From: Candidatus Latescibacterota bacterium
GTDB taxonomy: Bacteria > Latescibacterota > UBA2968 > UBA8231
Assembly: GCA_965242865.1 (NCBI GenBank)
Contig: CBDETK010000013.1
Location: 3,168,001-3,232,000 of the forward strand
Reading direction: 5' to 3'
DNA: 64,000 nt
Both the position numbers and the translations under genes were made by a program. The notes under the pieces are model-generated. The model saw only the letters and a program-made list of their open reading frames with translations, was not told the DNA's origin and searched no databases. Positions 4,957 through 35,565 of the stretch are shown here, piece after piece. Positions within the stretch are counted from its first letter, which is position 1. Every line of letters starts with the position of its first letter.

Positions 4957-7086
4957 ATGCGCGGCTTGCTCTTTGTTATTGGGCTATTGACCGCTCCGCT
5001 TGGAGCCTTCGCTCTAACGTGGGATTTTGACGAGGACACCACGTGGGGCTGGACCGCTCGGGAGAGCATCTTAGGAGATGACTTTGGAAGCTCCAGTACT
5101 ACGGTGTATAGCGAGGTAGCCGATGGCGTCTGGCGCATTGCGCCCGTGCCGAACTCTCAACGACCAGCCATCAATTTGCGTTCGCCGCCAATTGGGGAAG
5201 ATTCTGCCTTGTTTGACCGGGTCACCCTACGGCTGCGCATCATTCATGATCGCCACACTGAGGGACGAATCCAGATGGCGTGGTTCAATGCCGAGTATAG
5301 ACGCCTCAAAAAGGAATCGGGTTCATCCTTTATAACAGAATTGATTGGTCGTTTTTTTCTGGTACGTACACAACGTTATCCCACTGAATGGGAAGACATC
5401 ACTGTCGATCTGCGTACTTTGGCAGCAGCCCTAAAACGAGAAATCACTTGGCAGGATACTCTCTTCGACTTCCAGTTAGAACTGGATTTAAACGAATTCT
5501 CCCAAGGTCCGGTCGATCATCCAGTCTTTTTAGAAGTGGACTGGATTCAACTGACGGGGACTGAGGAGTTGCTATTGGGAGAATTACAGCCTCGGGCGGT
5601 CTTCTTGGAGGTGGGATTGCTTGGCAGGTTGTTCGCTGAACTCGGCTTTTTTCCCCTTGGCGTGGGTATTGAGGATATACGCTCAGGTTATGGGCTTCCG
5701 CAAAGTGCGTTGGGCGATGTGGACGGCGATGGGGATGTGGACTTGGTAACGGACTGGACGCGCTCCGACGCCGGCCAGACCTCGGGCTGGATGGTAGCTT
5801 CTAACGATGGTTTGGGGCACTTGGTCCCATTCAGGGAGTACACATCCCCTCTTGGACTTATAAGCCAACTCCAAGGGGGTGATTTTAACGGGGATGGACT
5901 CCTCGATCTGGCCTTTGCTGACGGTCGGAACCTCGAACTGTGGCTCAACAAAGGCGAAGACCGCTTTGAAGTTACTCTACAACTGTCCGATGTCTTATTC
6001 AATGGCCTAGCCGATGGCGATGGAGACGGGGACGTGGACCTGTTGAGTGTGGAAGTAGGCGATTCGCAGTACAACGCGATCCTATGGCTCAATGACGGCA
6101 ATGCCGGGTTTGCCCTCAGCGATCGGTTTGCCCCTAACAGCGAGGAGAAGCTCTTTCCTTTTGCGCTCGCTGGACACTCGTTGGGCGAGGCCGTGCGCCT
6201 GTTATGGGTTCGGCCCTGTTACCAACCTCAAGGTACTTGGCAGCTAACCCAGCCGTGGGCGGCTAGCGCGGAACCGATGCTGTTTCTTGACCCAGTGGTC
6301 AACCCCTGTAACCTGCACTTGCTCGCCGATTTGGATGACGATGGAACAGCAGAATTAATCGGGGCTGCTGAACGCGATTTACAATTCGATCCTTTTTACA
6401 CTGGCACAACCTATCACGGTTTGGCCCTGTGGCGTCTGGACGAGTCGGGCGAGTTGGTACGCCACGTTCTGCTTGATTCAGAGGTGCTTTTACCGCATCG
6501 CGCCATTGCCCACGACCTCAACGGCGATGGCCTGTTGGACTTGGCTGTGGTTGATGGCAACTTGGCGACCGGACCGGCGCTGGTGGTGCTGACCGGCCAG
6601 CGCGATGGCTTGCCCGTCGTCGAAGGCCGCTATCGGCTGCCGGGCACGGGCGGTCCCATCCTCGCCGGCGACCTCAACGGCGATGGGGCCGCCGATCTGG
6701 TCGTTCTCGGACGAAGCATAGAAGGCGGTCCGGGCGGAGCTTTCGTCTTTCTCAACCAGAGTGCGCCAGCCACCGCCATCGCCGCCGAGACGCTGACTAC
6801 GCCCACGGCCTTTGCCCTCGGGGCCAACTATCCCAACCCATTCAACCCAGCCACGACCATCCCCTTGGCACTGCCGGCCGACGCTGGCGAGGTGGCCTTA
6901 ACTATCTACAATGTCTTGGGGCAGCCGGTGCGCCGCGTATGGGCAGGTTCGTTGGCCGCCGGCGAGCATCGACTGGCTTGGGATGGCCGGGACGCGCAGG
7001 GGCAGTCCGTCGCCGCGGGGGTCTATTGGTATCGGTTGCAGGTGGGCGATCAGACGCACACCCGCAAGATGATCAAAATCGAATAG
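4957..7086 (+). CDS. Secreted FG-GAP/VCBS-repeat protein with FlgD-Ig tail, paralog A
   Basis: Signal peptide AFA|LTWDFD; multiple GDxDGDGxxDL repeats; GANYPNPFNPATTI...WDGRD...GVYWYRL. Confidence 0.88.
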   Translation: MRGLLFVIGLLTAPLGAFALTWDFDEDTTWGWTARESILGDDFGSSSTTVYSEVADGVWRIAPVPNSQRPAINLRSPPIGEDSALFDRVTLRLRIIHDRHTEGRIQMAWFNAEYRRLKKESGSSFITELIGRFFLVRTQRYPTEWEDITVDLRTLAAALKREITWQDTLFDFQLELDLNEFSQGPVDHPVFLEVDWIQLTGTEELLLGELQPRAVFLEVGLLGRLFAELGFFPLGVGIEDIRSGYGLPQSALGDVDGDGDVDLVTDWTRSDAGQTSGWMVASNDGLGHLVPFREYTSPLGLISQLQGGDFNGDGLLDLAFADGRNLELWLNKGEDRFEVTLQLSDVLFNGLADGDGDGDVDLLSVEVGDSQYNAILWLNDGNAGFALSDRFAPNSEEKLFPFALAGHSLGEAVRLLWVRPCYQPQGTWQLTQPWAASAEPMLFLDPVVNPCNLHLLADLDDDGTAELIGAAERDLQFDPFYTGTTYHGLALWRLDESGELVRHVLLDSEVLLPHRAIAHDLNGDGLLDLAVVDGNLATGPALVVLTGQRDGLPVVEGRYRLPGTGGPILAGDLNGDGAADLVVLGRSIEGGPGGAFVFLNQSAPATAIAAETLTTPTAFALGANYPNPFNPATTIPLALPADAGEVALTIYNVLGQPVRRVWAGSLAAGEHRLAWDGRDAQGQSVAAGVYWYRLQVGDQTHTRKMIKIE

Positions 7087-7116
7087 ACGACCCGAAGCTA
7101 TCACTGGAGGTGACCT

Positions 7117-9267
7117 ATGCGCGGCTTGCTTTTTGCGATTGGCTTGTTGACGGCTCCGGTTGGAGCCTTGGCCTTAACGTGGGATTTCGACGACGGCACC
7201 ACGTGGGGCTGGACCGCCCAAGAGAGTACTCTCAGCCTCGCCGCCGTTGGCGGTAGTCTCACCACGGTATATAGCGAAGTCGAAAACGGCGTTTGGCGCA
7301 TTGCGCCCGTGCCGGGCGGGCGACAACCGGCCATCCTATTGCGCTCGCCACCGATTGGGGCAGACTCGGCTCTGTTCGACCGGGTCACCCTACGGCTTCG
7401 CATCGTCCACCATACCCCCACCGAGGGCGATCTCCTGATGTGGTGGTTCAACACCGAATACAAACGCCTCATTGATGCTGGCATCCGACTTCCAAAGGGG
7501 TTTAGGACGATCCGTTATCAAATCTATCCCACCGAATGGCAACACATCACCATAGACCTACGTGCCTTAGAAGCCGCGGCGGAGGCGAATCCAGAAGTCG
7601 AGATCACTTGGCAGGACACCCTCTTTGATTTTCAGCTAGACTTGAACTTAAACCACGACGCGCAGAGTTCGGCTGATCATCCGGCCTTTTTAGAAGTGGA
7701 CTGGATTCAACTGACTGGGGACGAAGAGTTGCTGCTGGGAGAATTGCACCCTCGGGCGATCGCCGTGGCGGCGGGACTGCCCGGTGCCCTGTTCGCCGCG
7801 CCCGGTTTTTTCCCCCTCGGCGAGGGCATCTTGATAACAGATCACCTACTCCCAAACAATGCTTTGGGGGATGTGGACGACGATGGGGATGTGGATATGG
7901 TGGCGACCTATGTGCGCCACTCTCTGGGTGGAGCAGTAGAAACGGGCTGGATGGTGGCGTCCAACGATGGACGGGGTGGTTTTGTCCCGACCCAAGAGGT
8001 TTCCCTCTCCAAGACAGGGGAGGGCTCTTACATACGACCCGTCGTTGAGGGAGGCGATTTCGATGGAGATGGACTCCTCGATCTGGTCGTTACAGTGGGT
8101 GCTTCCGTTGACCTGTTGCACAATCAGGGCAAGGACGGCTTTGAAACGGTGCTGCACCTGTCTGATTTTGCTTTCGTTGGCTTGGCCGATGGCGATGGCG
8201 ATGGCGATGTGGATCTGTTGGTTCATGAGCTTGACGACGAGTCGCCCCATATAGTGTTGTGGCGCAACGACGGTGCGGCCGGATTTGTCCGCGATGATCG
8301 GTTCGTCCTCGACACCGAGGAAAGACTGTTTCCTTGGCTCCTCTCCGGGCAGCCGTTGGACGAGGCCGTGCGCCTGTTGTGGACCCACTCCTGCTACCAG
8401 CCCCAAGGGACTTGGCAACTGACCCAGCCGTGGGCGACCCGTGCGGAGCCACCGCTGTTTTTTGACGCGGTGGTCAACCCCTGTGATATGCACTTGCTCG
8501 TTGATTTGGAGGGTGATGGAGCGATGGAGTTGATCGGGGCTTCCGAGCGAAATCTATACTTCGACCCTACGAATACTAACGCCACCCGTCACGGTTTGGC
8601 CCTGTGGCGGGTGGACGCTTCGGGCGGGGTGGAACGCCATATCCTGCTCGATTCGCAGGTACGCCTATCCGATGGGACTGGAGCTATTGCCAGCGACCTG
8701 ACCGGCGATGGCCTGTTGGATCTAGCTGTGGTCGATGGCAACTTGGCGACTGGGCCGGCGTTAGTGGTGCTGACCGGCCAGCGCGATGGGCTGCCCGTCG
8801 TCGAAGGCCGCTATCGGCTGCCGGGCACGGGCGGCCAAGTGCTCCCCGGCGACGTAAACGGCGATGGGGCAACCGATCTGGTGGTGCTGGGGCGGAATAT
8901 GGCAGGCGGTCCGGGCGGAGCCTTCGTCTTCCTCAACCAGCGCACATCGGCCACCGCTGTCGCCGCCGAGACGTCGACCACCCCCTCAGCCTTTGTCCTC
9001 GGTGCCAACTATCCCAACCCGTTCAATCCAGTCACGACCATCCCCTTGGCACTGCCCGCCGACGCTGGCGAGATAGCCTTAACCATCTACAATGTCTTGG
9101 GGCAGCCGGTGCGCCACGTATGGGCGGGTTCGTTGGCGGCGGGCGCACACCGGCTGGCTTGGGATGGTCGGGACGCGCAGGGGCGGCCCGTCGCTGCGGG
9201 GGTCTATTGGTATCGGTTGCAGGTGGGCGATCAGACGCACACCCGCAAGATGGTCAAGATCGAATAG
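7117..9267 (+). CDS. FG-GAP/FlgD protein, paralog B
   Basis: Same architecture; RBS GGAGG. Confidence 0.88.
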   Translation: MRGLLFAIGLLTAPVGALALTWDFDDGTTWGWTAQESTLSLAAVGGSLTTVYSEVENGVWRIAPVPGGRQPAILLRSPPIGADSALFDRVTLRLRIVHHTPTEGDLLMWWFNTEYKRLIDAGIRLPKGFRTIRYQIYPTEWQHITIDLRALEAAAEANPEVEITWQDTLFDFQLDLNLNHDAQSSADHPAFLEVDWIQLTGDEELLLGELHPRAIAVAAGLPGALFAAPGFFPLGEGILITDHLLPNNALGDVDDDGDVDMVATYVRHSLGGAVETGWMVASNDGRGGFVPTQEVSLSKTGEGSYIRPVVEGGDFDGDGLLDLVVTVGASVDLLHNQGKDGFETVLHLSDFAFVGLADGDGDGDVDLLVHELDDESPHIVLWRNDGAAGFVRDDRFVLDTEERLFPWLLSGQPLDEAVRLLWTHSCYQPQGTWQLTQPWATRAEPPLFFDAVVNPCDMHLLVDLEGDGAMELIGASERNLYFDPTNTNATRHGLALWRVDASGGVERHILLDSQVRLSDGTGAIASDLTGDGLLDLAVVDGNLATGPALVVLTGQRDGLPVVEGRYRLPGTGGQVLPGDVNGDGATDLVVLGRNMAGGPGGAFVFLNQRTSATAVAAETSTTPSAFVLGANYPNPFNPVTTIPLALPADAGEIALTIYNVLGQPVRHVWAGSLAAGAHRLAWDGRDAQGRPVAAGVYWYRLQVGDQTHTRKMVKIE

Positions 9268-9296
9268 ACGACCGCAGTTATCACTGGAGGTGCATG

Positions 9297-11420
9297 ATGC
9301 GCGGCTTGCTTGTTGCGATTGGCTTGTTGACCGCTCCGGTTGGAGCCTTGGCCTTAACGTGGGATTTCGACGACGGCACCACGTGGGGCTGGACCGCCCA
9401 AGAGAGTTCTCTCAGTACTGCCGCTGTTGAAATTAGTCTCACCACGGTGTATAGCGAAGTCGAAGACGGCGTTTGGCGCATTGCGCCCGTGCCGGACGCA
9501 CAACGACCAGCCCTTCTATTGCGCTCGCCGCCAATTGGGGAAGACTCCGCCCTCTTTGACCGGGTCACCCTACGGCTCCGCATCGTCCACGATCGCCCCA
9601 CCGAGGGCAATCTCCTGATGTGGTGGTTCAATTCCGAGTACAAACGCTTCATAGACGCTGGCATACCAGACCCCGAGGGATTTTCGATGGGACGGTTCCA
9701 AATCTATCCGACCGAATGGCAAGACATCACGATAGACCTACGCGCCTTAGAATCCGCTGCGGAAGCGAACCCAGAAGCCGAGATCACTTGGCAGGACACC
9801 CTCTTCGACTTCCAGTTAGATTTGGACTTAAACACCGACCCGCAGGGCTTGGCCGACCATCCTGAGTTTTTAGAAGTGGACTGGATTCAACTGACCGGGG
9901 TTGAAGAACGGCTGCTGGGGGAATTGCAACCCCGAAAGATCGCAGTGGAAGTTGGGTTGCCCGGCGCGTTACTCGCATCGCCCGACTTTTTCCCTCTCGG
10001 CGAGGGGGTAGAGATTGAGATGGGACCGCAAACGCTGGGCGATGTAGATGGCGATGGCGATGTGGACTTGGTGGCAGCTTGGAGCCGCTCCACAGGCAAC
10101 GTCGGCCCCGGGCACGGGGGCTGGACGGTGGCGTTCAACAACGGACAGGGGGAATTTGTCTCCACCCGAGAGATACAAGTAGGGCCGGCCACGCGCGCTC
10201 CCCGCATTCAAGGGGGGGATTTTGACGGAGATGGGCTCCTCGATCTGGTCGTTGGGGGGGCTTCCGTTGACCTGTTGCACAATCAGGGCAAGGACAGCTT
10301 TGAAACGGTGCTGCACCTGTTCGATGTCGTTCTCCGTGGCCTCGCCGATGCCGATGGCGATGGCGATGTGGACCTGTTGGTTCATGAGCTTGACGACGAG
10401 TCGCTCCATGTAGTGTTGTGGCGCAACGACGGTGCGGCCGGATTTGTCCGCAGTGCTCGGTTTGTCCTCGACACCGCGGAAAGACTTTTTCCTCGGCTCC
10501 TCGCCGGGCAACCGTTGGGCGAGGCCGTGCGCCTGTTGTGGACCCGCTCCTGCTCCCAGCCTCAAGGGACCTGGCAACTGACCCGGCCATGGGCGACCCG
10601 CGAGGAGCCGCCGCTGTTTTTCGAGGCCACGGTCAACCCCTGTGACTTGCACCTGCTCATTGACCTCAACGGAGCTGGAAGAGTGGAGTTAATCGGAGCT
10701 TCCGAGCGGAATCTGCAATTTGACCCTACTACTATTAACCCCACTCGCCACGGTTTGTCGCTATGGCGGTTGGACGCCTCGGGCGGGGTGGAACGCCACC
10801 CCCTGCTTGGTCCGCAGGTGCTCTTATCGCATCGCGCCATTGCCCACGACCTCAACGGCGATGGCCTGTTGGACTTGGCCTTGGTCGATGGCAACTTGGC
10901 GACCGGGCCGGCGTTAGTGGTGCTAGTCGGCCAGCGCGATGGCTTGCCCGTCGTCGAAGGCCGCTATCCGCTGCCGGGCACGGGCGGTCCCGTCCTCGCC
11001 GGCAATGTAAACGGCGATGGGGCCGCCGATCTGGTCGTTCTCGGACGAAGCGTGGCAGGCGGTCCGGGCGGAGCCTTCGTCTTTCTAAACCAGAGTGCGC
11101 CAGCCACCGCCATCGCCGCCGAGACGCTGACTACGCCCTCAGCCTTTGTCCTCGGTGCGAACTATCCCAACCCGTTCAATCCAGCCACGACCATCCCCTT
11201 GGCACTGCCGGCCGACGCTGGCGAGGTGGCCTTAACCATCTATAACGTCTTGGGGCAGCCGGTGCGCCACGTGTGGGCAGGTTCGTTGGCGGCGGGCGCA
11301 CACCAGCTGGCTTGGGATGGCCGGGACGCGCAGGGGCGGCCCGTCGCTGCGGGGGTCTATTGGTATCGGTTGCAGGTGGGCGATCAGACGCACACCCGCA
11401 AGATGGTCAAAATCGAATAG
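9297..11420 (+). CDS. FG-GAP/FlgD protein, paralog C
   Basis: Start reassigned from 8604 to MRGLL after GGAGG, by paralog alignment. Confidence 0.88.
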   Translation: MRGLLVAIGLLTAPVGALALTWDFDDGTTWGWTAQESSLSTAAVEISLTTVYSEVEDGVWRIAPVPDAQRPALLLRSPPIGEDSALFDRVTLRLRIVHDRPTEGNLLMWWFNSEYKRFIDAGIPDPEGFSMGRFQIYPTEWQDITIDLRALESAAEANPEAEITWQDTLFDFQLDLDLNTDPQGLADHPEFLEVDWIQLTGVEERLLGELQPRKIAVEVGLPGALLASPDFFPLGEGVEIEMGPQTLGDVDGDGDVDLVAAWSRSTGNVGPGHGGWTVAFNNGQGEFVSTREIQVGPATRAPRIQGGDFDGDGLLDLVVGGASVDLLHNQGKDSFETVLHLFDVVLRGLADADGDGDVDLLVHELDDESLHVVLWRNDGAAGFVRSARFVLDTAERLFPRLLAGQPLGEAVRLLWTRSCSQPQGTWQLTRPWATREEPPLFFEATVNPCDLHLLIDLNGAGRVELIGASERNLQFDPTTINPTRHGLSLWRLDASGGVERHPLLGPQVLLSHRAIAHDLNGDGLLDLALVDGNLATGPALVVLVGQRDGLPVVEGRYPLPGTGGPVLAGNVNGDGAADLVVLGRSVAGGPGGAFVFLNQSAPATAIAAETLTTPSAFVLGANYPNPFNPATTIPLALPADAGEVALTIYNVLGQPVRHVWAGSLAAGAHQLAWDGRDAQGRPVAAGVYWYRLQVGDQTHTRKMVKIE

Positions 11421-11442
11421 ACGACCGATTTGGAGGTGCATG

Positions 11443-13560
11443 ATGCGCGGCTTGCTTTTTGCGATTGGCTTGTTGACCGCTCCGGTTGGAGCCTTGGCCT
11501 TAACGTGGGATTTCGACGACGGCACCACGTGGGGCTGGACCGCCCAAGAGAGCGACTTCAGCAGTGGAACTTCAGCCAATGTCACCACAGTGTACAGCGA
11601 AGTCGAAGATGGCGTCTGGCGCATTAAGCCGGTGCCGAGCGGACAACGACCGGCCATTGCGTTGATCTCGCCGCTGATTGGGGAAGACTCGGCCCTGTTC
11701 GACTGGGTCACCCTCCGGCTCCGCATCATCCACCATACCCCGACCGAGGGGCGACTCACCATGGAATGGTTCAATGCCGAATACAAACGGTACAGACGCC
11801 TCAGTCCTGCGTCCCGATTCCTTGAATTGGCGTCTCAGTTTCATACAGGACATCCGCAATTATATCTCACGGAATGGCAAGACATCACCATAGATATACG
11901 GGACTTGGAAGCGGACCCGGAAGCAGAATTCACTTGGCAGGACACCCTTTTCGATTTTCAGATAAACTTGGACTTAAACACCGACCCGCAGGGCATGGCC
12001 GACTATCCTGAGTTTTTAGAAGTGGATTGGATTCAACTGACCGGGGCGGAAGAATTGCTGTTGGGGGAATTGCCGCCCCGGGCGGTCGTCGTGGAGGCGG
12101 GATTGCCCGGCACTCTGTTCGCGGCACCCGACTTTTTTTCGCTCGGCGAGGTCTCTGGGAGGCCAGCCAGATGGGCAGGATCATCCGGCGCGCTGGGCGA
12201 TGTGGATGGCGATGGCGATGTGGATTTAGTGGCGGTTTGGGATCGACTCACGGACGCCGACTTTCAAGTTGGCTGGCTAATAGCGTCCAACGATGGGTTG
12301 GGCGGCTTTGAGACCATCCAAGAGCAAGAGGCCACCGGTCAGTCCATCAATCTCCAAGGGAGCGACTTCGACGGGGATGGCCTCCTCGACTTGGTCCTTG
12401 ATGGAGGCTCGACCCTCGAACTGTGGCACAACCGGGGCGAGGATGGGTTTGAGACCACGCTGCGGCTATCCGGCGTCTGGTTTCTTGGCCTAGCGGATGG
12501 CGATGGCGATGGCGATATGGATGTGTTGGGTGCGGAACTGGACGACCAGACACCCCACGCGATGGTATGGCTCAACGATGGCCCCGACGGATTTGTCCGC
12601 AGCGATCGGTTCGATCTCGACAGCGAAGAGGAGCTCTTTGCGTACCTTCCCGCCGGGCAACCGTTCGGCGAGGCCGCGCACCTGTTGTGGAACCGCCCCT
12701 GCTACCTGCCTCAAGGGCCGTGGCAACGGACCCGGCCGTGGGCGACCAGCGAGGAGCCGCCGCTGTTTTTCGAAGCCGAGGTCAGCCCCTGTAATCTGCA
12801 CCTGCTCGCCGATGTGGATGGCGACGGGGAGGTGGATTTACTCAGCTCCCCTGATACAAGAGAGTTTTTCATCACCGCCACCACCTATCACGGTTTGGAC
12901 TTGTGGCGGTTGGACGCTTCGGGTGGGGTGTCCCGCCATCCCCTGCTCGGCTCGCAGGTACAGGTGTCGCATCGCGCCATTGCTCACGACCTCAACGGCG
13001 ATGGCCTGCTGGACTTGGCCGTGGTTGATGGCAATTTAGCTACCGGACCGGCGCTGGTGGTGCTGGTCGGCCAGCGCGATGGCCTGCCCGTCGTCGAAGG
13101 CCACTACCGGCTGCCGGGCACGGGCGGCCAAGTGCTCCCCGGCGATGTAAACGGCGATGGGGCTGTCGATCTGGTGGTGCTGGGACGGAATATGGCAGGC
13201 GGTCCGGGCGGAGCCTTCGTCTTTCTAAACCAGCATACGCCAGCCACCGCCATCGCCGCCGAGACCGCGATCATGCCCTCAGCCTTTGCCCTCGGTGCGA
13301 ACTATCCCAACCCGTTCAATCCAGCCACGACCATCCCCTTGGTGCTCCCCGTTGACGCCAGCGAGGTGGCCTTAACCATCTACAATGTCTTGGGGCAGCC
13401 CGTGCGCCGAGTATGGAACGGTTCGTTGGCCGCCGGCGCACACCGGCTAGCTTGGGATGGCCGGGACGCCGCGGGCAAGCCGGTCGCCGCCGGCGTCTAT
13501 TGGTATCGGTTGCAGGTGGACGATCAGACGCGCACCCGCAAGATGGTCAAAATCGAATAG
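11443..13560 (+). CDS. FG-GAP/FlgD protein, paralog D
   Basis: Start reassigned to MRGLL after GGAGG. Confidence 0.88.
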   Translation: MRGLLFAIGLLTAPVGALALTWDFDDGTTWGWTAQESDFSSGTSANVTTVYSEVEDGVWRIKPVPSGQRPAIALISPLIGEDSALFDWVTLRLRIIHHTPTEGRLTMEWFNAEYKRYRRLSPASRFLELASQFHTGHPQLYLTEWQDITIDIRDLEADPEAEFTWQDTLFDFQINLDLNTDPQGMADYPEFLEVDWIQLTGAEELLLGELPPRAVVVEAGLPGTLFAAPDFFSLGEVSGRPARWAGSSGALGDVDGDGDVDLVAVWDRLTDADFQVGWLIASNDGLGGFETIQEQEATGQSINLQGSDFDGDGLLDLVLDGGSTLELWHNRGEDGFETTLRLSGVWFLGLADGDGDGDMDVLGAELDDQTPHAMVWLNDGPDGFVRSDRFDLDSEEELFAYLPAGQPFGEAAHLLWNRPCYLPQGPWQRTRPWATSEEPPLFFEAEVSPCNLHLLADVDGDGEVDLLSSPDTREFFITATTYHGLDLWRLDASGGVSRHPLLGSQVQVSHRAIAHDLNGDGLLDLAVVDGNLATGPALVVLVGQRDGLPVVEGHYRLPGTGGQVLPGDVNGDGAVDLVVLGRNMAGGPGGAFVFLNQHTPATAIAAETAIMPSAFALGANYPNPFNPATTIPLVLPVDASEVALTIYNVLGQPVRRVWNGSLAAGAHRLAWDGRDAAGKPVAAGVYWYRLQVDDQTRTRKMVKIE

Positions 13561-14250: not shown

Positions 14251-14273
14251 AGATGGCGCAGAAAGGTTGCTAT

Positions 14274-16160: not shown

Positions 16161-16241
16161 ATGGGTAGCCCTGCCAAAAAGAAAGGGGCATAAGATGATG
16201 AGTTGTGCCGTGGTACATAACTGAGGAGGGGACTGCGAGGC

Positions 16242-17137: not shown

Positions 17138-17152
17138 AGCGGCTAATCTGTA

Positions 17153-17217: not shown

Positions 17218-17299
17218 GAAAATCGCCGATCAACTGGCACCGACGCCTTACGCTGGCCTCGTAGAAAATTATTTTTAGCTATCCAACACCTTGTTTTTC

Positions 17300-17330: not shown

Positions 17331-17348
17331 GTGCCGGACCGGCCTCGT

Positions 17349-26935: not shown

Positions 26936-29086
26936 ATGCGCGGCTTGCTTTTTGCGATTGGATTGTTGACCGCTCCGGTTGGAGCCTTGGCCTTAACGTG
27001 GGATTTCGACGACGGCACCACGTGGGGCTGGACCGCCCAAGAGAGCTTCTTGGGTGCTGACGACAGGAACCCCACTACGGTGTACAGTGAAGTCGAAGAC
27101 GACATCTGGCGCATTGCGCCGGTGCCGGACGGACAACGACCGGCCATTACGTTGTACTCACCGCCGATTGGGGGAGACTCGGCCCTGTTCGACTCCGTCA
27201 CCCTACGGCTCCGCATTATCCATGATCGCCCCACCGAGGGGAATGTCCTGATGTCGTGGTTCAATTCCGAGTACAAAAGACTCAAGGAGGAATCGGGCTA
27301 CCGCGGAATAGACATAGACAGCATGTCGAAGTTTTCTACGGGACGTAATCAAATCTATCCCACCCAATGGCAAGACATCACGATAGATATACGCGCCCTA
27401 GAAGCCGCGGCGGAAGCCGACCCAGAAGCCGAGATCGTCTGGCAGGACACCCTCTTCAACTTCCAGATTGAACTGGACTTAAACACCGACCCGCAGGGCT
27501 TGGCCGATCATCCGGCCTTTGTCGAAGTAGATTGGATTCGACTGACGGGGATTGAAGAGTTGCTCTTGGGAGAATTGCCGCCCCGGAGCATCGCCACACC
27601 GACAGGGTCGCCCGGTGCGTTATTCGCCGCGCCCCGCTTTTTCCCTCTCGGCGAAGGCGTCAAAGTATCCCCCCAACTCTCGCAAAATGCTTTGGGGGAT
27701 GTGGATGGCGACGGGGATGTAGATATGGTGGTGGTCTATGGGCGCAGCTCTGCGGACGGAGGAGTAGAAGCGGGCTGGATGGTGGCGTCCAACGACGGGC
27801 GGGGTGGTTTTGTCCCCACCCAAGCGGTCTCCCTCTTCAAGGGCAAGGGCTCTTACCTACAACCCGTCCTCAAGGGCGGCGATTTCGACGGGGATGGACT
27901 CCTCGATCTGGCCGTTACAAGGGGGACTTCCGTTGAACTCTTGCACAATCAGGGCAAGGACGGCTTTGAAACGGTGCTGCACCTATCTGATTTCTCTTTC
28001 GTTGGCTTAGCCGATGGCGATGGCGATGGCGACGTGGACCTGTTGGGAGTGGAAGATGGCGATACTTGGTCCAACATGATTATGTGGTTCAATGATGGCG
28101 ACGCTGGGTTTGTCCGCCGTGATCGGTTCAACCTCGACACCGAGGAGGAACTTTTTGCTCGGCTCCTCCCAAGGCAACCGTTGGGCGAGGCCGTGCGCCT
28201 GTTATGGGTCCGACCCTGCTACCTGCCTCAAGGGGCTTTGCAACTGACCCAGCCGTGGGCGCCCCACGAGCCGCCGCCGCTGTTTTTTGAGACCGCGGTC
28301 AACCCCTGTTACCAACTGCACTTGCTCGCCGATCTGGATGGCGATGGAGCGGGGGAGTTCGTCGGACCGCCCGATAGGGACCTACCATTCGACTCTCGCG
28401 ACATCACCACCTACCACGGTTTGGCCCTGTGGCAGCTAGACGCCTCGGGCGGGGTGGAACGCCACACCCTGCTTGGTCCGCAGGTGCTCTTACCGCATCG
28501 CGCCATTGCCCACGACCTCAATGGCGATGGCCTGTTGGACTTGGCTGTGGTCGATGGCAATTTAGCTACTGGACCGGCGTTAGTGGTGCTGACTGGCCAG
28601 CGCGATGGCTTGCCCATCGTTGAAGGCCGCTATCCGCTGCCGGGCACGGGCGGCCCCGTCCTCGCCGGCAATGTAAACGGCGATGGGGCCGCCGATCTGG
28701 TCGTTCTCGGACGAAGCGTGGCAGGCGGTCCGGGCGGAGCTTTCGTCTTTCTCAACCAGCATACGCCAGCCACCGCCATCGCTGCCGAGACCACGACCAC
28801 CCCCTCAGCCTTTGTCCTCGGGGCCAACTACCCCAACCCGTTCAATCCGGCCACGACCATCCCCCTTACCCTGCCCGCCAGTGCCGAGGCGGTGGACGTA
28901 ACCATCTACAATGTCTTGGGGCAGCCCGTGCGCCACGTATGGGCGGGTTCGTTGGCGGCGGGCGCACACCGGCTGGCTTGGGATGGCCGGGACGCACAGG
29001 GGCAGTCCGTCGCCGCGGGGGTCTATTGGTATCGGTTGCAGGTGGACGATCAGACGCACACCCGCAAGATGGTCAAAATCGAATAG
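26936..29086 (+). CDS. FG-GAP/FlgD protein, paralog G
   Basis: Start reassigned to MRGLL. Confidence 0.88.
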   Translation: MRGLLFAIGLLTAPVGALALTWDFDDGTTWGWTAQESFLGADDRNPTTVYSEVEDDIWRIAPVPDGQRPAITLYSPPIGGDSALFDSVTLRLRIIHDRPTEGNVLMSWFNSEYKRLKEESGYRGIDIDSMSKFSTGRNQIYPTQWQDITIDIRALEAAAEADPEAEIVWQDTLFNFQIELDLNTDPQGLADHPAFVEVDWIRLTGIEELLLGELPPRSIATPTGSPGALFAAPRFFPLGEGVKVSPQLSQNALGDVDGDGDVDMVVVYGRSSADGGVEAGWMVASNDGRGGFVPTQAVSLFKGKGSYLQPVLKGGDFDGDGLLDLAVTRGTSVELLHNQGKDGFETVLHLSDFSFVGLADGDGDGDVDLLGVEDGDTWSNMIMWFNDGDAGFVRRDRFNLDTEEELFARLLPRQPLGEAVRLLWVRPCYLPQGALQLTQPWAPHEPPPLFFETAVNPCYQLHLLADLDGDGAGEFVGPPDRDLPFDSRDITTYHGLALWQLDASGGVERHTLLGPQVLLPHRAIAHDLNGDGLLDLAVVDGNLATGPALVVLTGQRDGLPIVEGRYPLPGTGGPVLAGNVNGDGAADLVVLGRSVAGGPGGAFVFLNQHTPATAIAAETTTTPSAFVLGANYPNPFNPATTIPLTLPASAEAVDVTIYNVLGQPVRHVWAGSLAAGAHRLAWDGRDAQGQSVAAGVYWYRLQVDDQTHTRKMVKIE

Positions 29087-29115: not shown

Positions 29116-31239
29116 ATGCGCGGCTTGCTTTTTGCGATTGGCTTATTGACGGCTCCGCTTGGAGCCTTGGCCCTAACGTGGGATTTTGACGAGGGCACCA
29201 CGTGGGGCTGGACCGCCCAAGAGGCGGGTTTCTACAGCACTAGGGGAACGGCTGATGCCACCACGGTGTACAGCGAAGTCGAAGACGGCGTCTGGCGTAT
29301 TGCGCCCGTGCCGGGGGCTCAAAAACCGACCCTTCAGTTGCGCTCACCGCCGATTGGCGAAGACTCGGCCCTGTTCGACTATGTCACCCTCCGGCTCCGC
29401 ATCATCCACCATACCCCGACCGCGGGAACTCTCTTGATGCGATGGTTCAATTCCGAGTACACAAGACTCCTCGGTCTGTACCAACACGAAGACGAAGACG
29501 AAGACGAAGTGGTGCCGTTTTCAACGAGCCGTTTTCAACTCTATCCCACTCAATGGGAAGACATCACCATAGATATACGCGCCTTAGAAGCGAACCCAGA
29601 AATCGCGATCGTCTGGCAGGACACCCTTTTTGAATTCCATTTTGACTTGGACCTACACACCGCCGCACAGGGACCGGCCGATCATCCGGCCTTTGTCGAA
29701 GTAGATTGGATTCAACTGACCGGGGCTGAAGAGTTACTGCTAGGGGAATTGTCGCCCCGGGCCATCGTCGTGGAGGCGGGCGTACCCGGGGCGTTGTTCG
29801 CCGAACCGGCCTTTTTCCCCCTCGTTGAGGGCATCACAGGCAAAACAGTGGGCCTTGGACAATCGGCGGGTACTTTGGGGGATGTGGATGGCGATGGCGA
29901 TGTGGATCTAGTAGCGGTTTGGAATCGCTTGACCGCCACCGGAAGCGACCATGGTTGGCTCATAGCCTCCAACGATGGCTTCGGCGGCTTTGCTCCCACC
30001 CAAGAGGAGGCCGCAAGTGCCTACCTCAGTCTCCAAGGAAGCGACTTCGATGGGGATGGGCTGTTAGACTTGGTCTTTGATGGAGAACGGATAGTCGAAC
30101 TGTGGCACAACCGGGGCGAGGATGGCTTTGAGAGCACGTTGCGGCTGTCCGGCGTTGAGTTCATCGGCTTAGCCGATGGCGAGGGCGATGGCGATGTGGA
30201 CCTGTTGGTTCTTGAGCTTGACGACGAATCGCCCCACGTGGTGTTGTGGCTCAACGATGGCGACGCCGGATTTGTCCGCAGCGATCGGTTTGATCTCGAC
30301 AGCGAAGAGGAGCTCCTTCCGTACCCGACCTCCGAGCAAGTGCCGGGCGAGGCCGTTCATCTGTTGTGGAACCGCCCCTGCTACCTGCCTCAAGGGCCGT
30401 GGCAACGGACCCGGCCGTGGGCGACCAGCGAGGAGCCGCCGCTGTTTTTCGAGACCGAGGTCAACCCCTGTACTCTACAACTGCTCGCCGATGTGGATGG
30501 CGATGGAGAAGTGGATTTACTCAGCGTCTCTGTGATAAGAGAGTTCTTCTTCACCGCCACCACCTATCACGGTTTGGACTTGTGGCGGTTGGACGCTTCG
30601 GGCGGGGTGTCTCGCCACCCCCTGCTCGGCTCGCAGGTACAGGTGTCGCATCGCGCCATTGCCCACGACCTCAACGGCGATGGCCTGTTGGACTTGGCCT
30701 TGGTTGATGGCAACTTAGCCACCGGACCGGCGCTGGTGGTGCTGGTCGGCCAGCGCGATGGGCTGCCCGTCGTCGAAGGCCGCTACCGGCTGCCGGGCAC
30801 GGGCGGCCAAGTGCTCCCCGGCGACGTAAACGGCGATGGGGCCGCCGATCTGGTCGTTCTCGGACGAAGCGTGGCAGGCGGTCCGGGCGGAGCCTTCGTC
30901 TTCCTCAACCAGCATACGCCAGCCACCGCCATCGCCGCCGAGACCACGACCACCCCCTCAGCCTTTGTCCTCGGGGCCAACTACCCCAACCCGTTCAATC
31001 CGGCCACGACCATCCCCTTGGCACTGCCCGCCGACGCCAGCGAGGTGGCCTTAACTATCTACAATGTCTTGGGGCAGCCGGTGCGCCGCGTATGGGCAGG
31101 TTCGTTGGCAGCGGGCGCACACCGGCTGGCTTGGGATGGCCGGGACGCGCAGGGGCAGCCCGTCGCCGCGGGGGTCTATTGGTATCGGTTGCAGGTGGAC
31201 GATCAGACGCACACCCGCAAGATGATCAAAATCGAATAG
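29116..31239 (+). CDS. FG-GAP/FlgD protein, paralog H
   Basis: Start reassigned to ATG 29116 after GGAGG. Confidence 0.88.
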   Translation: MRGLLFAIGLLTAPLGALALTWDFDEGTTWGWTAQEAGFYSTRGTADATTVYSEVEDGVWRIAPVPGAQKPTLQLRSPPIGEDSALFDYVTLRLRIIHHTPTAGTLLMRWFNSEYTRLLGLYQHEDEDEDEVVPFSTSRFQLYPTQWEDITIDIRALEANPEIAIVWQDTLFEFHFDLDLHTAAQGPADHPAFVEVDWIQLTGAEELLLGELSPRAIVVEAGVPGALFAEPAFFPLVEGITGKTVGLGQSAGTLGDVDGDGDVDLVAVWNRLTATGSDHGWLIASNDGFGGFAPTQEEAASAYLSLQGSDFDGDGLLDLVFDGERIVELWHNRGEDGFESTLRLSGVEFIGLADGEGDGDVDLLVLELDDESPHVVLWLNDGDAGFVRSDRFDLDSEEELLPYPTSEQVPGEAVHLLWNRPCYLPQGPWQRTRPWATSEEPPLFFETEVNPCTLQLLADVDGDGEVDLLSVSVIREFFFTATTYHGLDLWRLDASGGVSRHPLLGSQVQVSHRAIAHDLNGDGLLDLALVDGNLATGPALVVLVGQRDGLPVVEGRYRLPGTGGQVLPGDVNGDGAADLVVLGRSVAGGPGGAFVFLNQHTPATAIAAETTTTPSAFVLGANYPNPFNPATTIPLALPADASEVALTIYNVLGQPVRRVWAGSLAAGAHRLAWDGRDAQGQPVAAGVYWYRLQVDDQTHTRKMIKIE

Positions 31240-31268: not shown

Positions 31269-33428
31269 ATGCGCGGCTTGTTTTTTGCGATTGGCTTATT
31301 GACCGCTCCGGTTGGAGCCTTGGCCTTAACGTGGGATTTTGACGAGGGCACCACGTGGGGCTGGACCGCCCAAGAGAGCTACTTAGGCGATGACGACAGA
31401 GATCCCACCACGGTGTACAGCGAAGTCGAAGACGGCGTCTGGCGCATTGCGCCGGTGCCGGACGGACAACGACCGGCCATTACGTTGTACTCGCCGCCGA
31501 TTGGGGAAGACTCGGCCCTATTCGACTATGTCACCCTCCGGCTCCGCATCCTCCATGATAGCCCCACCGGGGGGAATCTCTTTATGGACTGGTTCAATGC
31601 CGAGTACAAAAGACTCCGGGAGGAAAGAAGACTCAAACAGGCAGCGGGCCAACGCATACCAAGCTACGGGTCGAAGTTTTCGATGGGCCGTTATCAAATC
31701 TATCCCACCCAATGGGAAGACATCACGATAGATATACGCGCCTTAGAAGCCGCTGCGGAAGCGAATCCAGAAGTCGCGATCGTCTGGCAGGACACCCTTT
31801 TTGAGTTTTATTTTGACTTGGCTCTAAACACCGCCGCGCAGGGGCCGGCCGATCATCCGTCCTTTGTCGAAGTAGATTGGATTCAACTGACCGGGGTCGA
31901 AGAGTTGCTCTTGGGGGAATTGCCGCCCCGGAGGATCGCCGCGCCGGCTGGGTCGCCCGGCGCGTTGTTCGCCGCGCCCAACTTCTCCCCCCTCGGCGAA
32001 GGCGTCCAAGACTCCCGACTCTCGGAAAATGCTTTGGGGGATGTGGATGGCGATGGGGATGTGGATATGGTGGTGGCCTATGTGCGCGGCTCTACGAGAG
32101 TAGAAACGGGCTGGATGGTGGCGTCCAACGACGGGCGGGGTGGTTTTGTCCCCACCCAAGAGGTCGCTCTCTTCAAGGGCAAGGGCTCTTACCCCTACCC
32201 CCACTTTGAGGGCGTCGATTTTGATGGGGATGGACTCCTCGATCTGGTCGTTTCAGGGAGGGATTCCGTTGACCTGTTGTACAATCAGGGCAAGGACGGT
32301 TTTGAAACGGCCCTACAACTGTTTGTACCTGATTTCCTTTTCGTTGGCTTGGCCGATGGTGATGGTGATGGCGATGTGGACCTATTGGGAGTGGAAAGCG
32401 GCGACACTCGGCCTAACGTGACGATGTGGTTCAACGATGGCGACGCCGGGTTTGTCCGCCGTGATCGGTTCAGCCTCGACACCGAGGAGGACCTTTTTCC
32501 TCGGATACTCCCAGGGCAGCCGCCGGGCGAGGCCGTGCGCCTGTTGTGGACCCGACCCTGCTACCTGCCCCAAGGAGCTTTGCAACTGACCCAACCATGG
32601 GCGGCTAGCGAGGAGCCGCCGCTGTTTTTCGAGACCACGGTCGACCCCTGTGACCAACTGCACTTGCTCGCTGATCTGGATGGCGATGGAGCGGTAGAAT
32701 TCGTCGGACCGCCCGATCAGGATCTACAATTCGACTCTCGCGACATCACCACCTACCACGGTTTGGCCCTGTGGCGTCTGGACGAGTCGGGCGAGTTGGT
32801 ACGCCACGTTCTGCTTGATTCAGAGGTGCTTTTACCGCATCGCGCCATTGCCCACGACCTGACCGGCGATGGCCTGTTGGACTTGGCCGTGGTCGATGGC
32901 AATTTAGCTACCGGACCGGCGCTGGTGGTGCTGGTCGGCCAGCGCGATGGGCTGCCCGTCGTCGAAGGCCGCTACCGGCTGCCGGGCACGGGCGGCCAAG
33001 TGCTCCCCGGCGATGTAAACGGCGATGGGGCAACCGATCTGGTGGTGCTGGGGCGGAATATGGCAGGCGGTCCCGTCGGAGCCTTCGTCTTCCTCAACCA
33101 GCATACGCCAGCCACCGCGGTCACTATTGAGACCGCGACTGTCCCCTCAGCCTTTGTCCTCGGCGCCAACTATCCCAACCCGTTCAATCCGGCCACGACC
33201 ATCCCCCTTACCCTGCCCGCCAGTGCCGAGGCGGTGGACGTAACCATCTACAATGTCTTGGGGCAGCCCGTGCGCCGAGTATGGAACGGTTCGTTGGCCG
33301 CCGGCGCACACCGGCTAGCTTGGGATGGCCGGGACGCCGCGGGCAAGCCGGTCGCCGCGGGGGTCTATTGGTATCGGTTGCAGGTGGACGATCAGACGCA
33401 CACCCGCAAGATGGTCAAAATCGAATAG
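31269..33428 (+). CDS. FG-GAP/FlgD protein, paralog I
   Basis: Start reassigned to ATG 31269 after GGAGG. Confidence 0.88.
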   Translation: MRGLFFAIGLLTAPVGALALTWDFDEGTTWGWTAQESYLGDDDRDPTTVYSEVEDGVWRIAPVPDGQRPAITLYSPPIGEDSALFDYVTLRLRILHDSPTGGNLFMDWFNAEYKRLREERRLKQAAGQRIPSYGSKFSMGRYQIYPTQWEDITIDIRALEAAAEANPEVAIVWQDTLFEFYFDLALNTAAQGPADHPSFVEVDWIQLTGVEELLLGELPPRRIAAPAGSPGALFAAPNFSPLGEGVQDSRLSENALGDVDGDGDVDMVVAYVRGSTRVETGWMVASNDGRGGFVPTQEVALFKGKGSYPYPHFEGVDFDGDGLLDLVVSGRDSVDLLYNQGKDGFETALQLFVPDFLFVGLADGDGDGDVDLLGVESGDTRPNVTMWFNDGDAGFVRRDRFSLDTEEDLFPRILPGQPPGEAVRLLWTRPCYLPQGALQLTQPWAASEEPPLFFETTVDPCDQLHLLADLDGDGAVEFVGPPDQDLQFDSRDITTYHGLALWRLDESGELVRHVLLDSEVLLPHRAIAHDLTGDGLLDLAVVDGNLATGPALVVLVGQRDGLPVVEGRYRLPGTGGQVLPGDVNGDGATDLVVLGRNMAGGPVGAFVFLNQHTPATAVTIETATVPSAFVLGANYPNPFNPATTIPLTLPASAEAVDVTIYNVLGQPVRRVWNGSLAAGAHRLAWDGRDAAGKPVAAGVYWYRLQVDDQTHTRKMVKIE

Positions 33429-33450
33429 ACGACCGATTTGGAGGTGCATG

Positions 33451-35565
33451 ATGCGCGGCTTGCTTTTTGCGATTGGATTGTTGACCGCTCCGGTTGGAGC
33501 CTTGGCCTTAACGTGGGATTTCGACGAGGACACCACGTGGGGCTGGACCGCCCAAGAGGCGGGTTCCTATAGCACTAGGGGAACGGAGGATGTCACTACG
33601 GTACACAGCGAAGTGGAAGATGGCGTTTGGCGTCTTGCGCCCGTGCCGGAGGCTCGAAAACCCACCCTTCAGTTGCGCTCGCCGCCGATTGAGGAAGACT
33701 CCGCCCTGTTCGACTCCGTTACCCTCCGGTTACGCATCATCCACCATACCCCCACTGAGGGCAATCTCGTGATGCGATGGTTCAATGCTGAGTACACAAG
33801 ACGCCTCGGGCTGAACCGACGCGAAGGAGATACTCAGTTTCGGATGAGCCGTTATCAACTCTATCCCACTCAATGGGAAGCCATCACCGTAGATATACGC
33901 GCCTTAGAAGCCGCAGCCGTAGCCGACCCAGCCGCCGCGATCGTCTGGCAGGACACCCTTTTTGAATTCCATTTTGACTTGGATCTAAACACCGGCGCAC
34001 AGGGGCCGGCCGATCATCCGTCCTTTGTCGAAGTAGATTGGATTCAGCTAACGGGGGTTGAAGAGTTACTGCTGGGGGAGTTGCCGCCCCGGGCCATCGT
34101 CGTGGAGGCGGGCGTACCCGGCGCGTTGTTCGGCGAACCGGCCTTTTTTCCCCTCGTTGAGGGCATCACAGGCAAAACAGTGATCCTTGGAGAATCGGCG
34201 GGTACTTTGGGGGATGTGGATGGCGATGGCGATGTGGACCTCGTGGCGATGTGGAACCGCCGCACCGCCACCGGAAGTGCCCATGGCTGGGTAATAGCCG
34301 CCAACGATGGCTTCGGCGGCTTTGTCCCCACTCAAGAGGAGACCACAAGCCCAGACCTCGGTCTCCAAGGGAGCGACTTCGATGGGGATGGGCTGTTCGA
34401 CTTGGTCTTTAGTGGCGACCGGATCGTCGAACTGTGGCATAACGAAGGGGAAGATGGGTTTGCGAGCACGTTGCAGCTATCCGGCGTCAAGTTACTTGTC
34501 CTCGCCGATGGCGAGGGCGATGGCGATGTGGACCTGTTGGTTCATGAGCCTGACGACTTATCGTCCCACGTGATTTTGTGGATCAACGACGGCGACGCCG
34601 GCTTCGTCCGCCGGGAGCGGTTCGATCTCGACAGCGAAGAGAGACTCTATCCGTACCCGCGCTCCAAGCAACCGCCGGGCGAGGCCGTGCGCCTGTTGTG
34701 GAACCGCCCCTGCTACTTACCCGTAGGGCCTTGGCGCCTGACCCGGCCGTGGGCGGCTAGTGCGGAGGAGCCGCTGTTTTTTGAGACCGCGCTCAACCCC
34801 TGTACGCTGGACCTAATCGCTGATCTGGATGGCGATGGGGCGGTGGAGTTCGTCGGTTCCCTTGAACTGCGCCGGTTCCTCGGCCTCATCTACCACGGCT
34901 TGGCCGTGTGGCGGGTGGACGCTTCGGGTGGGGTGTCCCGCCATCCCCTGCTCGGTCCGCAGATGATTGCGTCGCATCGCTCCATTGCCCACGACCTCAA
35001 CGGCGATGGCCTGTTGGACTTGGCTGTGGTCGATGGCAACTTGGCGACTGGACCGGCGTTAGTGGTGCTGACCGGCCAGCGCGATGGGCTGCCCGTCGTC
35101 GAAGGCCGCTATCGGCTGCCGGGCACGGGCGGTCAAGTCCTCCCAGGCGACGTAAACGGCGATGGGGCTGTCGATCTGGTGGTGCTGGGGCGGAATATGG
35201 AAGGCGGTCCGGGCGGAGCCTTCGTCTTTCTAAACCAGCATACGCCAGCCACCACGGTCACTACTGAGACCGCGACTGTCCCCTCAGCCTTTGTCCTCGG
35301 GGCCAACTATCCCAACCCGTTCAATCCAGCCACGACCATCCCCTTGGTGCTGCCTGCCCAAGCCGGCGAGGTGGCCTTAACCATCTACAACGTCTTGGGG
35401 CAGCCGGTGCGCCACGTATGGGCGGGTTCGTTGGCCGCCGGCGAACACCGACTGGCTTGGGATGGCCGGGACGCGCAGGGACAGCCGGTCGCCGCGGGGG
35501 TCTATTGGTATCGGTTGCAGGTGGGCGATCAGACGCACACCCGCAAGATGATCAAAATCGAATAG
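33451..35565 (+). CDS. FG-GAP/FlgD protein, paralog J
   Basis: Start reassigned to MRGLL. Confidence 0.88.
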   Translation: MRGLLFAIGLLTAPVGALALTWDFDEDTTWGWTAQEAGSYSTRGTEDVTTVHSEVEDGVWRLAPVPEARKPTLQLRSPPIEEDSALFDSVTLRLRIIHHTPTEGNLVMRWFNAEYTRRLGLNRREGDTQFRMSRYQLYPTQWEAITVDIRALEAAAVADPAAAIVWQDTLFEFHFDLDLNTGAQGPADHPSFVEVDWIQLTGVEELLLGELPPRAIVVEAGVPGALFGEPAFFPLVEGITGKTVILGESAGTLGDVDGDGDVDLVAMWNRRTATGSAHGWVIAANDGFGGFVPTQEETTSPDLGLQGSDFDGDGLFDLVFSGDRIVELWHNEGEDGFASTLQLSGVKLLVLADGEGDGDVDLLVHEPDDLSSHVILWINDGDAGFVRRERFDLDSEERLYPYPRSKQPPGEAVRLLWNRPCYLPVGPWRLTRPWAASAEEPLFFETALNPCTLDLIADLDGDGAVEFVGSLELRRFLGLIYHGLAVWRVDASGGVSRHPLLGPQMIASHRSIAHDLNGDGLLDLAVVDGNLATGPALVVLTGQRDGLPVVEGRYRLPGTGGQVLPGDVNGDGAVDLVVLGRNMEGGPGGAFVFLNQHTPATTVTTETATVPSAFVLGANYPNPFNPATTIPLVLPAQAGEVALTIYNVLGQPVRHVWAGSLAAGEHRLAWDGRDAQGQPVAAGVYWYRLQVGDQTHTRKMIKIE

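Follow-up and report, generated by a model that had tools for sequence, protein, structure and literature searches.

The window analysed here is a 64-kb stretch of DNA from a Candidatus Latescibacterota bacterium (assembly GCA_965242865.1, contig CBDETK010000013.1, positions 3,168,001 to 3,232,000). It contains an array of paralogous FG-GAP genes whose products are probably exported proteins for binding at the cell surface, forming a fixed repertoire in which every paralog has its own specificity. The family appears to be a lineage-specific and strongly expanded group of cargo proteins of the type IX secretion system (T9SS). A predicted signal peptide and a type A sorting domain would export each protein, which may then be displayed on the cell surface or released. 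Each protein seems to combine two modules of binding type, a jelly roll that resembles carbohydrate-binding modules (CBMs) and a seven-bladed propeller that resembles integrin alpha and carries calcium motifs. Loops 1-3 and the outward-facing strand residues of the jelly roll, together with the propeller loops opposite the calcium hairpins, are the candidate specificity surfaces. Through these surfaces, the paralogs could each recognise a different variant within one class of ligands, for which glycans or matrix polymers from the habitat are the most likely candidates.

Ten paralogs are located on the + strand at positions 4957-35565 and encode proteins of 704-719 residues, according to open reading frame (ORF) calls. 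Every one of them starts with MRGLL or MHGLL and is preceded by GGAGG. The framework of the paralogs is 65-70% identical to that of the first copy, and the mean column identity of the ten-copy alignment is 75%. A preliminary description of this DNA had listed the same ten FG-GAP genes, all of which exist, and had quoted ten loop-1 segments and two loop-2 examples that are found letter for letter in our alignment. However, its set was incomplete. The 6.0-Mb genome holds 33 copies of the N-terminal domain (N-domain), consisting of 15 copies in one array, five of which lie just upstream of the window, one divergent copy that is the eleventh in the window, and 17 copies of a second subfamily (subfamily B) that are 35-42% identical and occupy three other places in the genome. 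Within the gene runs of the array, adjacent genes are separated by 22-30 bases, which suggests joint transcription rather than expression of one gene at a time. The family genes of the window and the parts of paralog 1 are as follows.

4957..7086, + strand: paralog 1 (709 aa; ORF and Shine-Dalgarno sequence), with signal peptide at residues 1-19, N-domain at 19-203, a linker, propeller at 224-603 and T9SS C-terminal domain at 620-709
5011..5565, + strand: N-domain of paralog 1 (residues 19-203), modelled as a CBM-like beta jelly roll
5065..5106, + strand: loop 1 of paralog 1, which links strands 2 and 3 of the model (residues 37-50)
5290..5355, + strand: loop 2 of paralog 1, which forms two short helices in the model and links strands 7 and 8 (residues 112-133)
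5626..6765, + strand: predicted seven-bladed FG-GAP propeller of paralog 1 (residues 224-603), by structure match
6814..7086, + strand: type A T9SS C-terminal sorting domain of paralog 1, with TIGR04183 above its cut-off
7117..9267, + strand: paralog 2 (716 aa)
9297..11420, + strand: paralog 3 (707 aa)
11443..13560, + strand: paralog 4 (705 aa)
14133..16160, + strand: divergent eleventh copy (~32-38% identity), with N-domain and propeller, without a T9SS tail and with an uncertain start
18021..20144, + strand: paralog 5 (707 aa)
22411..24543, + strand: paralog 6 (710 aa)
26936..29086, + strand: paralog 7 (716 aa)
29116..31239, + strand: paralog 8 (707 aa)
31269..33428, + strand: paralog 9 (719 aa)
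33451..35565, + strand: paralog 10 (704 aa)

What is the fold of the N-terminal domain? Pfam yields no significant match in the first ~250 residues. AlphaFold2 (AF2) models the N-domain from the 33 genome copies with eleven strands, a predicted local distance difference test score (pLDDT) of 87.6 and a predicted template modelling score (pTM) of 0.85, and the full model of paralog 1, built from an 86-sequence alignment, has values of 85.4 and 0.78, respectively. The model confidently folds the N-terminal ~185 residues into a CBM-type beta jelly roll, in agreement with the jelly roll expected in the preliminary description. The antibody analogy drawn there does not extend to this predicted fold, which is of the CBM type and not immunoglobulin-like. 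Structure comparison (Foldseek, VIA) returns a phage baseplate domain (8gtc_M; Z 12.8) as the best match, together with CBM28 (1uww_B; Z 11.6, root-mean-square deviation (rmsd) 2.8, 143 residues aligned), CBM22 (2w5f; Z 11.0), laminin L4b (Z 10.9), CBM27 (Z 10.6), CBM15 (Z 10.4) and CBM17 (1j83_A; Z 9.7, rmsd 3.2, 144 residues aligned), with Foldseek E-values down to 9e-6. Because other CBM families score equal to CBM17/28, the comparison places the fold class and not the family. At the sequence level, similarity to PF03424 (CBM_17_28) is weak and seen in 16 of the 33 N-domains, with E 0.0064 at best and nothing at E<=1 for paralog 1, and a PDB sequence profile search returned matches at chance level (best E 0.29). 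In fold and size, the modelled N-domain is the same as type B CBMs, of which CBM17/28 is nearest and CBM22, CBM27, CBM15 and CBM4 are also similar. It also places invariant Trp and Arg residues beside variable outward strand residues, as would be expected at a sheet-face site such as the clefts of CBMs. Unlike CBMs, it lacks a significant sequence match to any CBM family, is joined to a propeller and a T9SS tail rather than to a glycoside hydrolase, and contains two long variable insertions, loops L1 and L2.

The central module is recognised by sequence profiles as well as by structure. In paralog 1, Pfam detects FG-GAP_3 at 67.4 bits (cut-off 26.9) and FG-GAP at 31.4 bits (cut-off 22.1), and paralog 9 gives a similar result. 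DSSP strands of the AF2 model define seven four-stranded blades, with the strand at residues 230-235 closing blade 7. The modelled propeller matches those of integrin alphaM, alphaL, alphaIIb and alphaV with Z 22-23 over 330 residues at a sequence identity of 9-13%. DxDxDG motifs, which belong to calcium-type DxDxDGxxD hairpins, are found in the A-B loops of blades 1, 2, 3, 5, 6 and 7 and are absent from blade 4. The predicted module therefore shares with integrin alpha its seven four-stranded blades, the DxDxDG motif in the A-B hairpins of six of them and variability on the opposite face. In contrast to integrin alpha, the family is bacterial and predicted to be secreted, and it has no beta subunit, thigh/calf legs or transmembrane segment.

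Both ends of the proteins carry predicted export signals. The N-terminus is hydrophobic and ends in A-x-A before LTWDF, as read from the sequence, which predicts a signal peptide. At the C-terminus of paralog 1, Pfam reports FlgD_ig (52 bits)/Por_Secre_tail, and the NCBIfam model of the type A T9SS sorting domain, TIGR04183, scores 34.8 bits against a cut-off of 23. The check for the T9SS machinery covered PorU and SprA, and both are encoded in the genome (NF033707, 624 bits with a cut-off of 420; TIGR04189, 482 bits with a cut-off of 200). In its predicted signal peptide and Por_Secre_tail, as well as in the presence of PorU and SprA in the genome, the family resembles the type A T9SS cargo of the FCB superphylum. 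It differs from the usual T9SS cargo in that a single family accounts for a third of all tail matches in the genome: 32 of the 96 matches belong to it, comprising all 15 array copies and all 17 subfamily-B copies.

The differences between the paralogs are not spread evenly over the proteins. In the ten-copy alignment, columns of high smoothed entropy are located at 39-47 (loop 1), 119-141 (loop 2), 253-264 (before LGDVD), 283-295, 313-329, 346-349, 397-401 and 500-512 (before YHGL). The preliminary description had proposed further variable loops before LGDVD and YHGL; these segments are indeed variable but belong to the propeller, not to the N-terminal domain. When the entropy is set out by model secondary structure, the variability proves to be organised and far from uniform. 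In a 15-copy alignment, the mean entropy of the N-domain is 1.76 bits in L1 (37-50), 1.31 bits in L2 (112-133), which varies in both sequence and length among copies, and 1.01 bits in L3 (178-190), compared with 0.61 bits in the strands, and the loops at 24-32 and 76-87 are nearly invariant (0.23 and 0.25 bits). In the propeller, the B-C and D-A loops have a mean entropy of 1.29 bits over 103 columns versus 0.50 bits over 102 columns of the A-B and C-D loops (Mann-Whitney p=7e-12), and the strands have 0.85 bits. By propeller topology, the variable loops would all lie on the side away from the calcium hairpins, which in integrins is the ligand face.

The N-domain strands contribute to the variability as well. 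Strands 5, 7, 8 and 10 exhibit a two-residue periodicity of entropy: positions 73, 75, 104, 106, 108, 134, 138, 171 and 173 reach 1.7-2.9 bits, and their neighbours are invariant. Strands 6 and 11, including R92 and R94, are invariant on both sides. This periodicity suggests that the variable part of the N-domain comprises a sheet face with its flanking loops and not the loops alone. Such an arrangement would resemble that of cleft-binding CBMs. The earlier suggestion that the loops converge on one binding face is supported in part: it fits the propeller, in which variability is concentrated on one face, whereas in the N-domain L1 and L2 would leave opposite ends of the sandwich by strand parity and outward-facing strand residues also vary.

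Are these surfaces under diversifying selection? When codon changes were counted in every one of the 45 pairs that the ten copies form, for which synonymous sites are near saturation (proportion of synonymous differences (pS) 0.47-0.68 in loops), the ratio of nonsynonymous to synonymous change (omega) was 0.20-0.29 in the framework and 0.36-1.28 in the loops. Loop sets chosen by entropy yielded omega up to 6 and were rejected as circular; the test was redone with loops defined from model secondary structure and with disjoint close pairs. In the four closest own-genome pairs, omega is 0.77 for L1, 2.80 for L2 and 0.33 for strands. The L2 value (36.7 nonsynonymous and 4.3 synonymous differences; uncorrected binomial p=0.026) loses its significance once ten tested loops are corrected for, and six pairs give 0.52 for L1 and 1.21-1.32 for L2. 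Fifteen within-genome pairs were further compared with the ten best available between-genome pairs, which are 83-90% identical and some of which may not be orthologs, with the following omega values.

L1: 0.51 within the genome, 0.39 between genomes
L2: 1.18 within the genome, 0.45 between genomes
L3: 0.55 within the genome, 0.33 between genomes
N-domain strands: 0.42 within the genome, 0.21 between genomes
Propeller top loops: 0.81 within the genome, 0.50 between genomes
Propeller bottom loops: 0.25 within the genome, 0.19 between genomes

No region has an omega significantly above 1 in the within- or between-genome pairs. Constraint is weaker on the variable parts than elsewhere, and this holds more strongly among paralogs than across genomes.

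Comparisons with other genomes and samples indicate that the variable surfaces are retained. Close ortholog DNA was not found among species representatives (best 70%, for paralog 1). At the protein level, eleven pairs of a paralog and an external protein were compared, and the four closest (P0001, P0073, P0059 and P0031; 87-93% identity) differ at 1/44 positions in L1, 7/88 in L2, 43/684 in the N-domain framework, 84/1111 in the propeller framework and 72/492 in the tail. Paralog 1 and its ortholog P0001 have no differences in loop 1 (0/11) or loop 2 (0/22). Sample comparison used Logan contigs, so rare variants may be present. Contigs of X1, a run of the sponge-labelled study, span 4957-6208 and differ from the window at a single position (5586), which is not in a loop, and those of X10 span 4984-5304 with zero differences; the N-domain of paralog 2 (7197-8145) has one difference in X1. 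Many contig differences fall in conserved 3' parts, where the summed depth rises, and probably reflect contigs placed on the wrong paralog. Thus, the variable surfaces are stable between related strains, which points to a fixed repertoire and not to antibody-like hypervariation. For the antibody analogy, taken as hypervariation or diversifying selection, there is no support: no nonsynonymous excess is secure, and close orthologs and the contigs of other studies keep the loops.

Contig joints were also observed in the window at 6595-13270, where contigs of several runs switch from one paralog to another within conserved 3' parts (as from 10075 to 12351 and from 12476 back to 8179). These jumps probably also come from contigs placed on the wrong paralog, although they may be assembly chimeras or real recombinants.

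Different parts of one gene appear to have followed different courses. The copy g3164789 and paralog 6, which are 91% identical, have a synonymous divergence (dS) of 0.11 in the N-domain and 0.026 in the propeller and tail. The C-terminal domain of paralog 1 is 83% identical to the tail of its ortholog and 94% identical to that of a paralog of its own genome, and among P0031, P0059 and P0073 the tails agree at 95-98%. Because tails are closer within a genome than to the ortholog, gene conversion is indicated to homogenise the gene ends, and the variable surfaces stay paralog-specific. In some pairs, pS is 0.58-0.70 in loops versus 0.22-0.32 in the frame, which points to segment replacement or poor loop alignment rather than point mutation. 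We propose that the paralogs diverged once they had been duplicated, while selection was relaxed or episodically positive and with some segments being replaced, and that purifying selection has since kept these differences, while gene conversion would homogenise the sorting domain and signal peptide within the genome.

A mosaic loop pattern is seen in the external protein P0054. Its loop 1 resembles that of paralog 7 (1/10 differences) and its loop 2 that of paralog 9 (1/27), and 10/23 residues of paralog 7 loop 2 differ from P0054, with insertions and deletions. From sequence, this looks like the replacement of one loop after duplication.

The variable segments could alternatively be the least constrained surface of an old paralog family and have no role in specificity, which would be the usual pattern at 65-70% identity. 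The 45-pair loop omega values, obtained near saturation, are compatible with such near-neutral change, as are the absence of a significant nonsynonymous excess in any region of the 15 within-genome pairs and the lower model confidence of L1 and L2 (pLDDT 65-74; L1 ~65). However, an unconstrained surface would not be expected to be as conserved as the framework, and the loops of close orthologs are (8/132 differences versus 43/684). Between genomes, the L1, L2 and propeller top-loop omega values (0.39-0.50) are well below 1. Moreover, the variability is organised on one propeller face and on alternate strand residues, and loop differences persist despite gene conversion of the adjoining tail. 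We therefore regard a lack of specificity in these segments as unlikely.

A second alternative is ongoing diversifying selection, in which an arms race with phages, predators or host immunity would turn the loops into antigenic or receptor-escape surfaces; of the readings considered, it comes nearest to the antibody-like idea of the preliminary description. Consistent with this, L2 has its high omega in the four closest own-genome pairs, and omega is higher within than between genomes in every variable class (for L2, 1.18 versus 0.45; for the top loops, 0.81 versus 0.50). The entropy-picked N-domain loops of g3164789 and paralog 6 differ by 13 nonsynonymous changes to 1 synonymous change, and genomes of a single genus carry anywhere from 2 to 33 copies. 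Nevertheless, the L2 signal fails correction and declines as pairs are added (1.21-1.32 in six pairs and 1.18 in fifteen), and the 13:1 count is circular because its columns were picked for variability. The loops are unchanged in close orthologs and in the contigs of other studies, and the gene spacing suggests joint transcription of the paralogs. An arms race of this type is accordingly improbable.

A search of other genomes recovered the family in each of 12 Latescibacterota genomes from the same genus, with between 2 and 29 matches per genome, and in none of 8 genomes that represent other families of the class. Public proteins include 642 relatives at E<=0.001, and the N-domain profile matches only 176 of 1.84 billion representatives. 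The titles of 74 genome loci name Latescibacterota/Latescibacteria in 70 cases and Gemmatimonadetes/-ota in 4. Four distant relatives (P0152, P0223, P0226 and P0260) carry the N-domain and propeller behind an extracytoplasmic function (ECF) sigma factor (regions 2 and 4) and have no sorting tail. The two that were inspected at sequence level, P0152 and P0226, contain a hydrophobic membrane segment between the sigma part and the module, and six further representatives have the N-domain at residue ~300. These fusions place the module where a sensor domain sits, which favours a ligand-binding role.

The proteins could instead be enzymes, with a catalytic propeller acting on a polysaccharide or another substrate, a jelly roll serving as the targeting CBM and paralogs covering different substrates. 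CBMs are typically appended to enzymes, and the whole-model Foldseek search is led by galactose oxidases (E 3.7e-9 and 9.2e-9), with sialidases that contain lectin domains also among the matches. The family shares with galactose oxidase a three-module order (in that enzyme an N-terminal CBM32, a seven-bladed propeller and a C-terminal beta domain). However, its propeller is FG-GAP and not kelch, and its C-terminal domain is a secretion signal. Given the low TM-scores (0.28-0.33) and high rmsd (17-20 A) of these matches, the modules match but their arrangement does not. The propeller on its own matches aldos-2-ulose dehydratase well (Z 22.4), but its other top matches, integrin alpha, BBS1 and the PLL lectins, are binding modules. 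Furthermore, Pfam and NCBIfam yield no catalytic family, conserved catalytic residues were not identified, although no test was aimed at them, and the module forms the outer part of ECF-sigma fusions, which is a sensor context. A primarily enzymatic role thus seems rather implausible to us.

Arrays of genes with a framework and variable segments are typical targets of diversity-generating retroelements, yet diversification by such a dedicated mutagenic system is extremely unlikely here, since the sole RVT_1 match in the genome (C13:5488215-5488628) is ~2.3 Mb from the array (a template repeat was not specifically searched for), the loops differ in length, which adenine-directed mutagenesis would not cause, they are stable between strains and studies, and Rfam finds no family in the window.

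Several observations weigh against a fixed repertoire of binding proteins, even though it remains the reading that we favour. Seven of the eleven external pairs, at 74-85% identity, differ heavily in their loops and may not be orthologs; for example, 17/23 L2 residues differ between paralog 8 and P0027, and 6/9 L1 residues differ between paralog 6 and P0106. In between-genome DNA pairs, loops change 2-3 times faster than strands (19-22% versus 8%), which indicates that the loops are constrained, though less than the framework. The CBM17/28 match is weak, and jelly-roll fold similarity at Z 10-13 is no proof of sugar binding. The propeller could be catalytic, either instead of binding or beside it. 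Finally, the exposure and clustering of the variable N-domain residues are deduced from strand periodicity and topology and not from measured distances.

The family genes are embedded in a repeated unit. A related small Cys-containing ORF precedes each run of family genes (also at L001, near 5669-5980), and DUF4159 genes are always 3' of family genes, so that the unit consists of a small ORF, 1-5 family genes and a DUF4159 gene. The neighbouring genes in the window are listed below.

4511..4846, + strand: small Cys-containing leader ORF ahead of paralogs 1-4 (111 aa; tblastn)
17496..17825, + strand: small leader ORF ahead of paralog 5 (109 aa; tblastn)
20245..21567, + strand: DUF4159 protein closing the paralog-5 unit (440 aa; Pfam PF13709, 68.9 bits)
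21627..22325, + strand: leader protein with its own T9SS tail ahead of paralog 6 (232 aa)
24644..25981, + strand: DUF4159 protein closing the paralog-6 unit
26041..26913, + strand: leader protein ahead of paralogs 7-10, internally duplicated and ending in a T9SS tail (290 aa)
35797..37137, + strand: DUF4159 protein closing the unit of paralogs 7-10

Further DUF4159 paralogs are located at 1-353 of the window (partial) and at C13:393596-394930 and 496197-497534 of the genome. Each of the six close DUF4159 paralogs in the genome (76-100% identity) immediately follows a family gene, and this is the case in both subfamilies. This linkage suggests that DUF4159 proteins and family proteins share a function.

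Other features of the window concern the regions around these units. The divergent copy at 14133-16160, which may be decayed or re-purposed, is flanked by TPR-rich sequence: its annotated N-terminal extension is TPR-like, and a 310-residue TPR protein is encoded 3' of it at 16205-17137. Paralogs 1 and 5 are preceded by a duplicated region (4133-4957 and 17134-18021) that contains two near-identical hairpins with an 11-bp stem followed by a T run (4317-4342 and 17300-17325), ~640-700 bases before the genes. Promoter and terminator scans gave counts at or below shuffle expectation (4 vs 7.0 and 13 vs 19.2; 2 vs 4.7 and 14 vs 13.4), and transcription units are therefore not defined here from promoters or terminators. 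A degenerate pattern for the ribosome-site/start context gave no match. Downstream of the array, two duplicated ABC permease genes of the ADOP family lie on the - strand (41172-43739 and 51536-54022), with matches of ~224-226 bits that are below the family cut-off of 622.

The stretch is present in sequencing runs labelled sponge metagenome from one study and in runs of two further studies that are listed under coded organism names, and the sponge-metagenome runs point to a sponge habitat. An integrin-type repeat class in a bacterium found in such runs is reminiscent of the eukaryotic-like proteins of sponge symbionts. FG-GAP is among the domains of eukaryotic-like proteins that one study tested in sponges, and single proteins of this type are reported there to change uptake by sponges (PMC13747020). 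For sponge Latescibacterota, the accessible part of another report describes ANK, LRR, NHL, SEL1, TPR, WD40, FN3 and PQQ domains, and that text, as distinct from its supplements, contains no occurrence of FG-GAP or of a secretion system (PMC12993501). Literature searches found no paper that joins FG-GAP with T9SS, among the matches listed, or with Latescibacteria, and none on Latescibacterota and type IX secretion or on the family itself. The occurrence in sponge runs, together with the reported effect of eukaryote-like repeat proteins on sponge-bacterium interactions (PMC13747020), makes the family a reasonable candidate for host or matrix recognition.

The family makes up a third of the predicted type IX secretion cargo in a 6-Mb genome and has hundreds of public relatives. 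It is confined to one uncultured lineage and bears only generic names in the annotations seen. It joins two classic binding modules, and the differences between copies provide concrete candidate specificity surfaces. Two opposed forces appear to act in one gene, namely, concerted evolution, which acts on the export signal, and the preservation of surfaces that are specific to each paralog; the family reveals no new diversification mechanism. A more far-reaching and distinctly tentative idea is that the family is a germline-encoded recognition repertoire of a host-associated bacterium, with dozens of surface receptors in which a lectin-type jelly roll is paired with an integrin-like propeller. 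Such a repertoire would have been diversified on two faces by duplication and loop replacement, with gene conversion keeping the export signals uniform. If this were true, the cell would recognise, adhere to or be recognised by the glycans or matrix of a host such as a sponge, the copy number, which ranges from 2 to 33 within the genus, would follow the range of hosts or the breadth of the niche, and single paralogs would differ in ligand specificity in a way that could be transferred.

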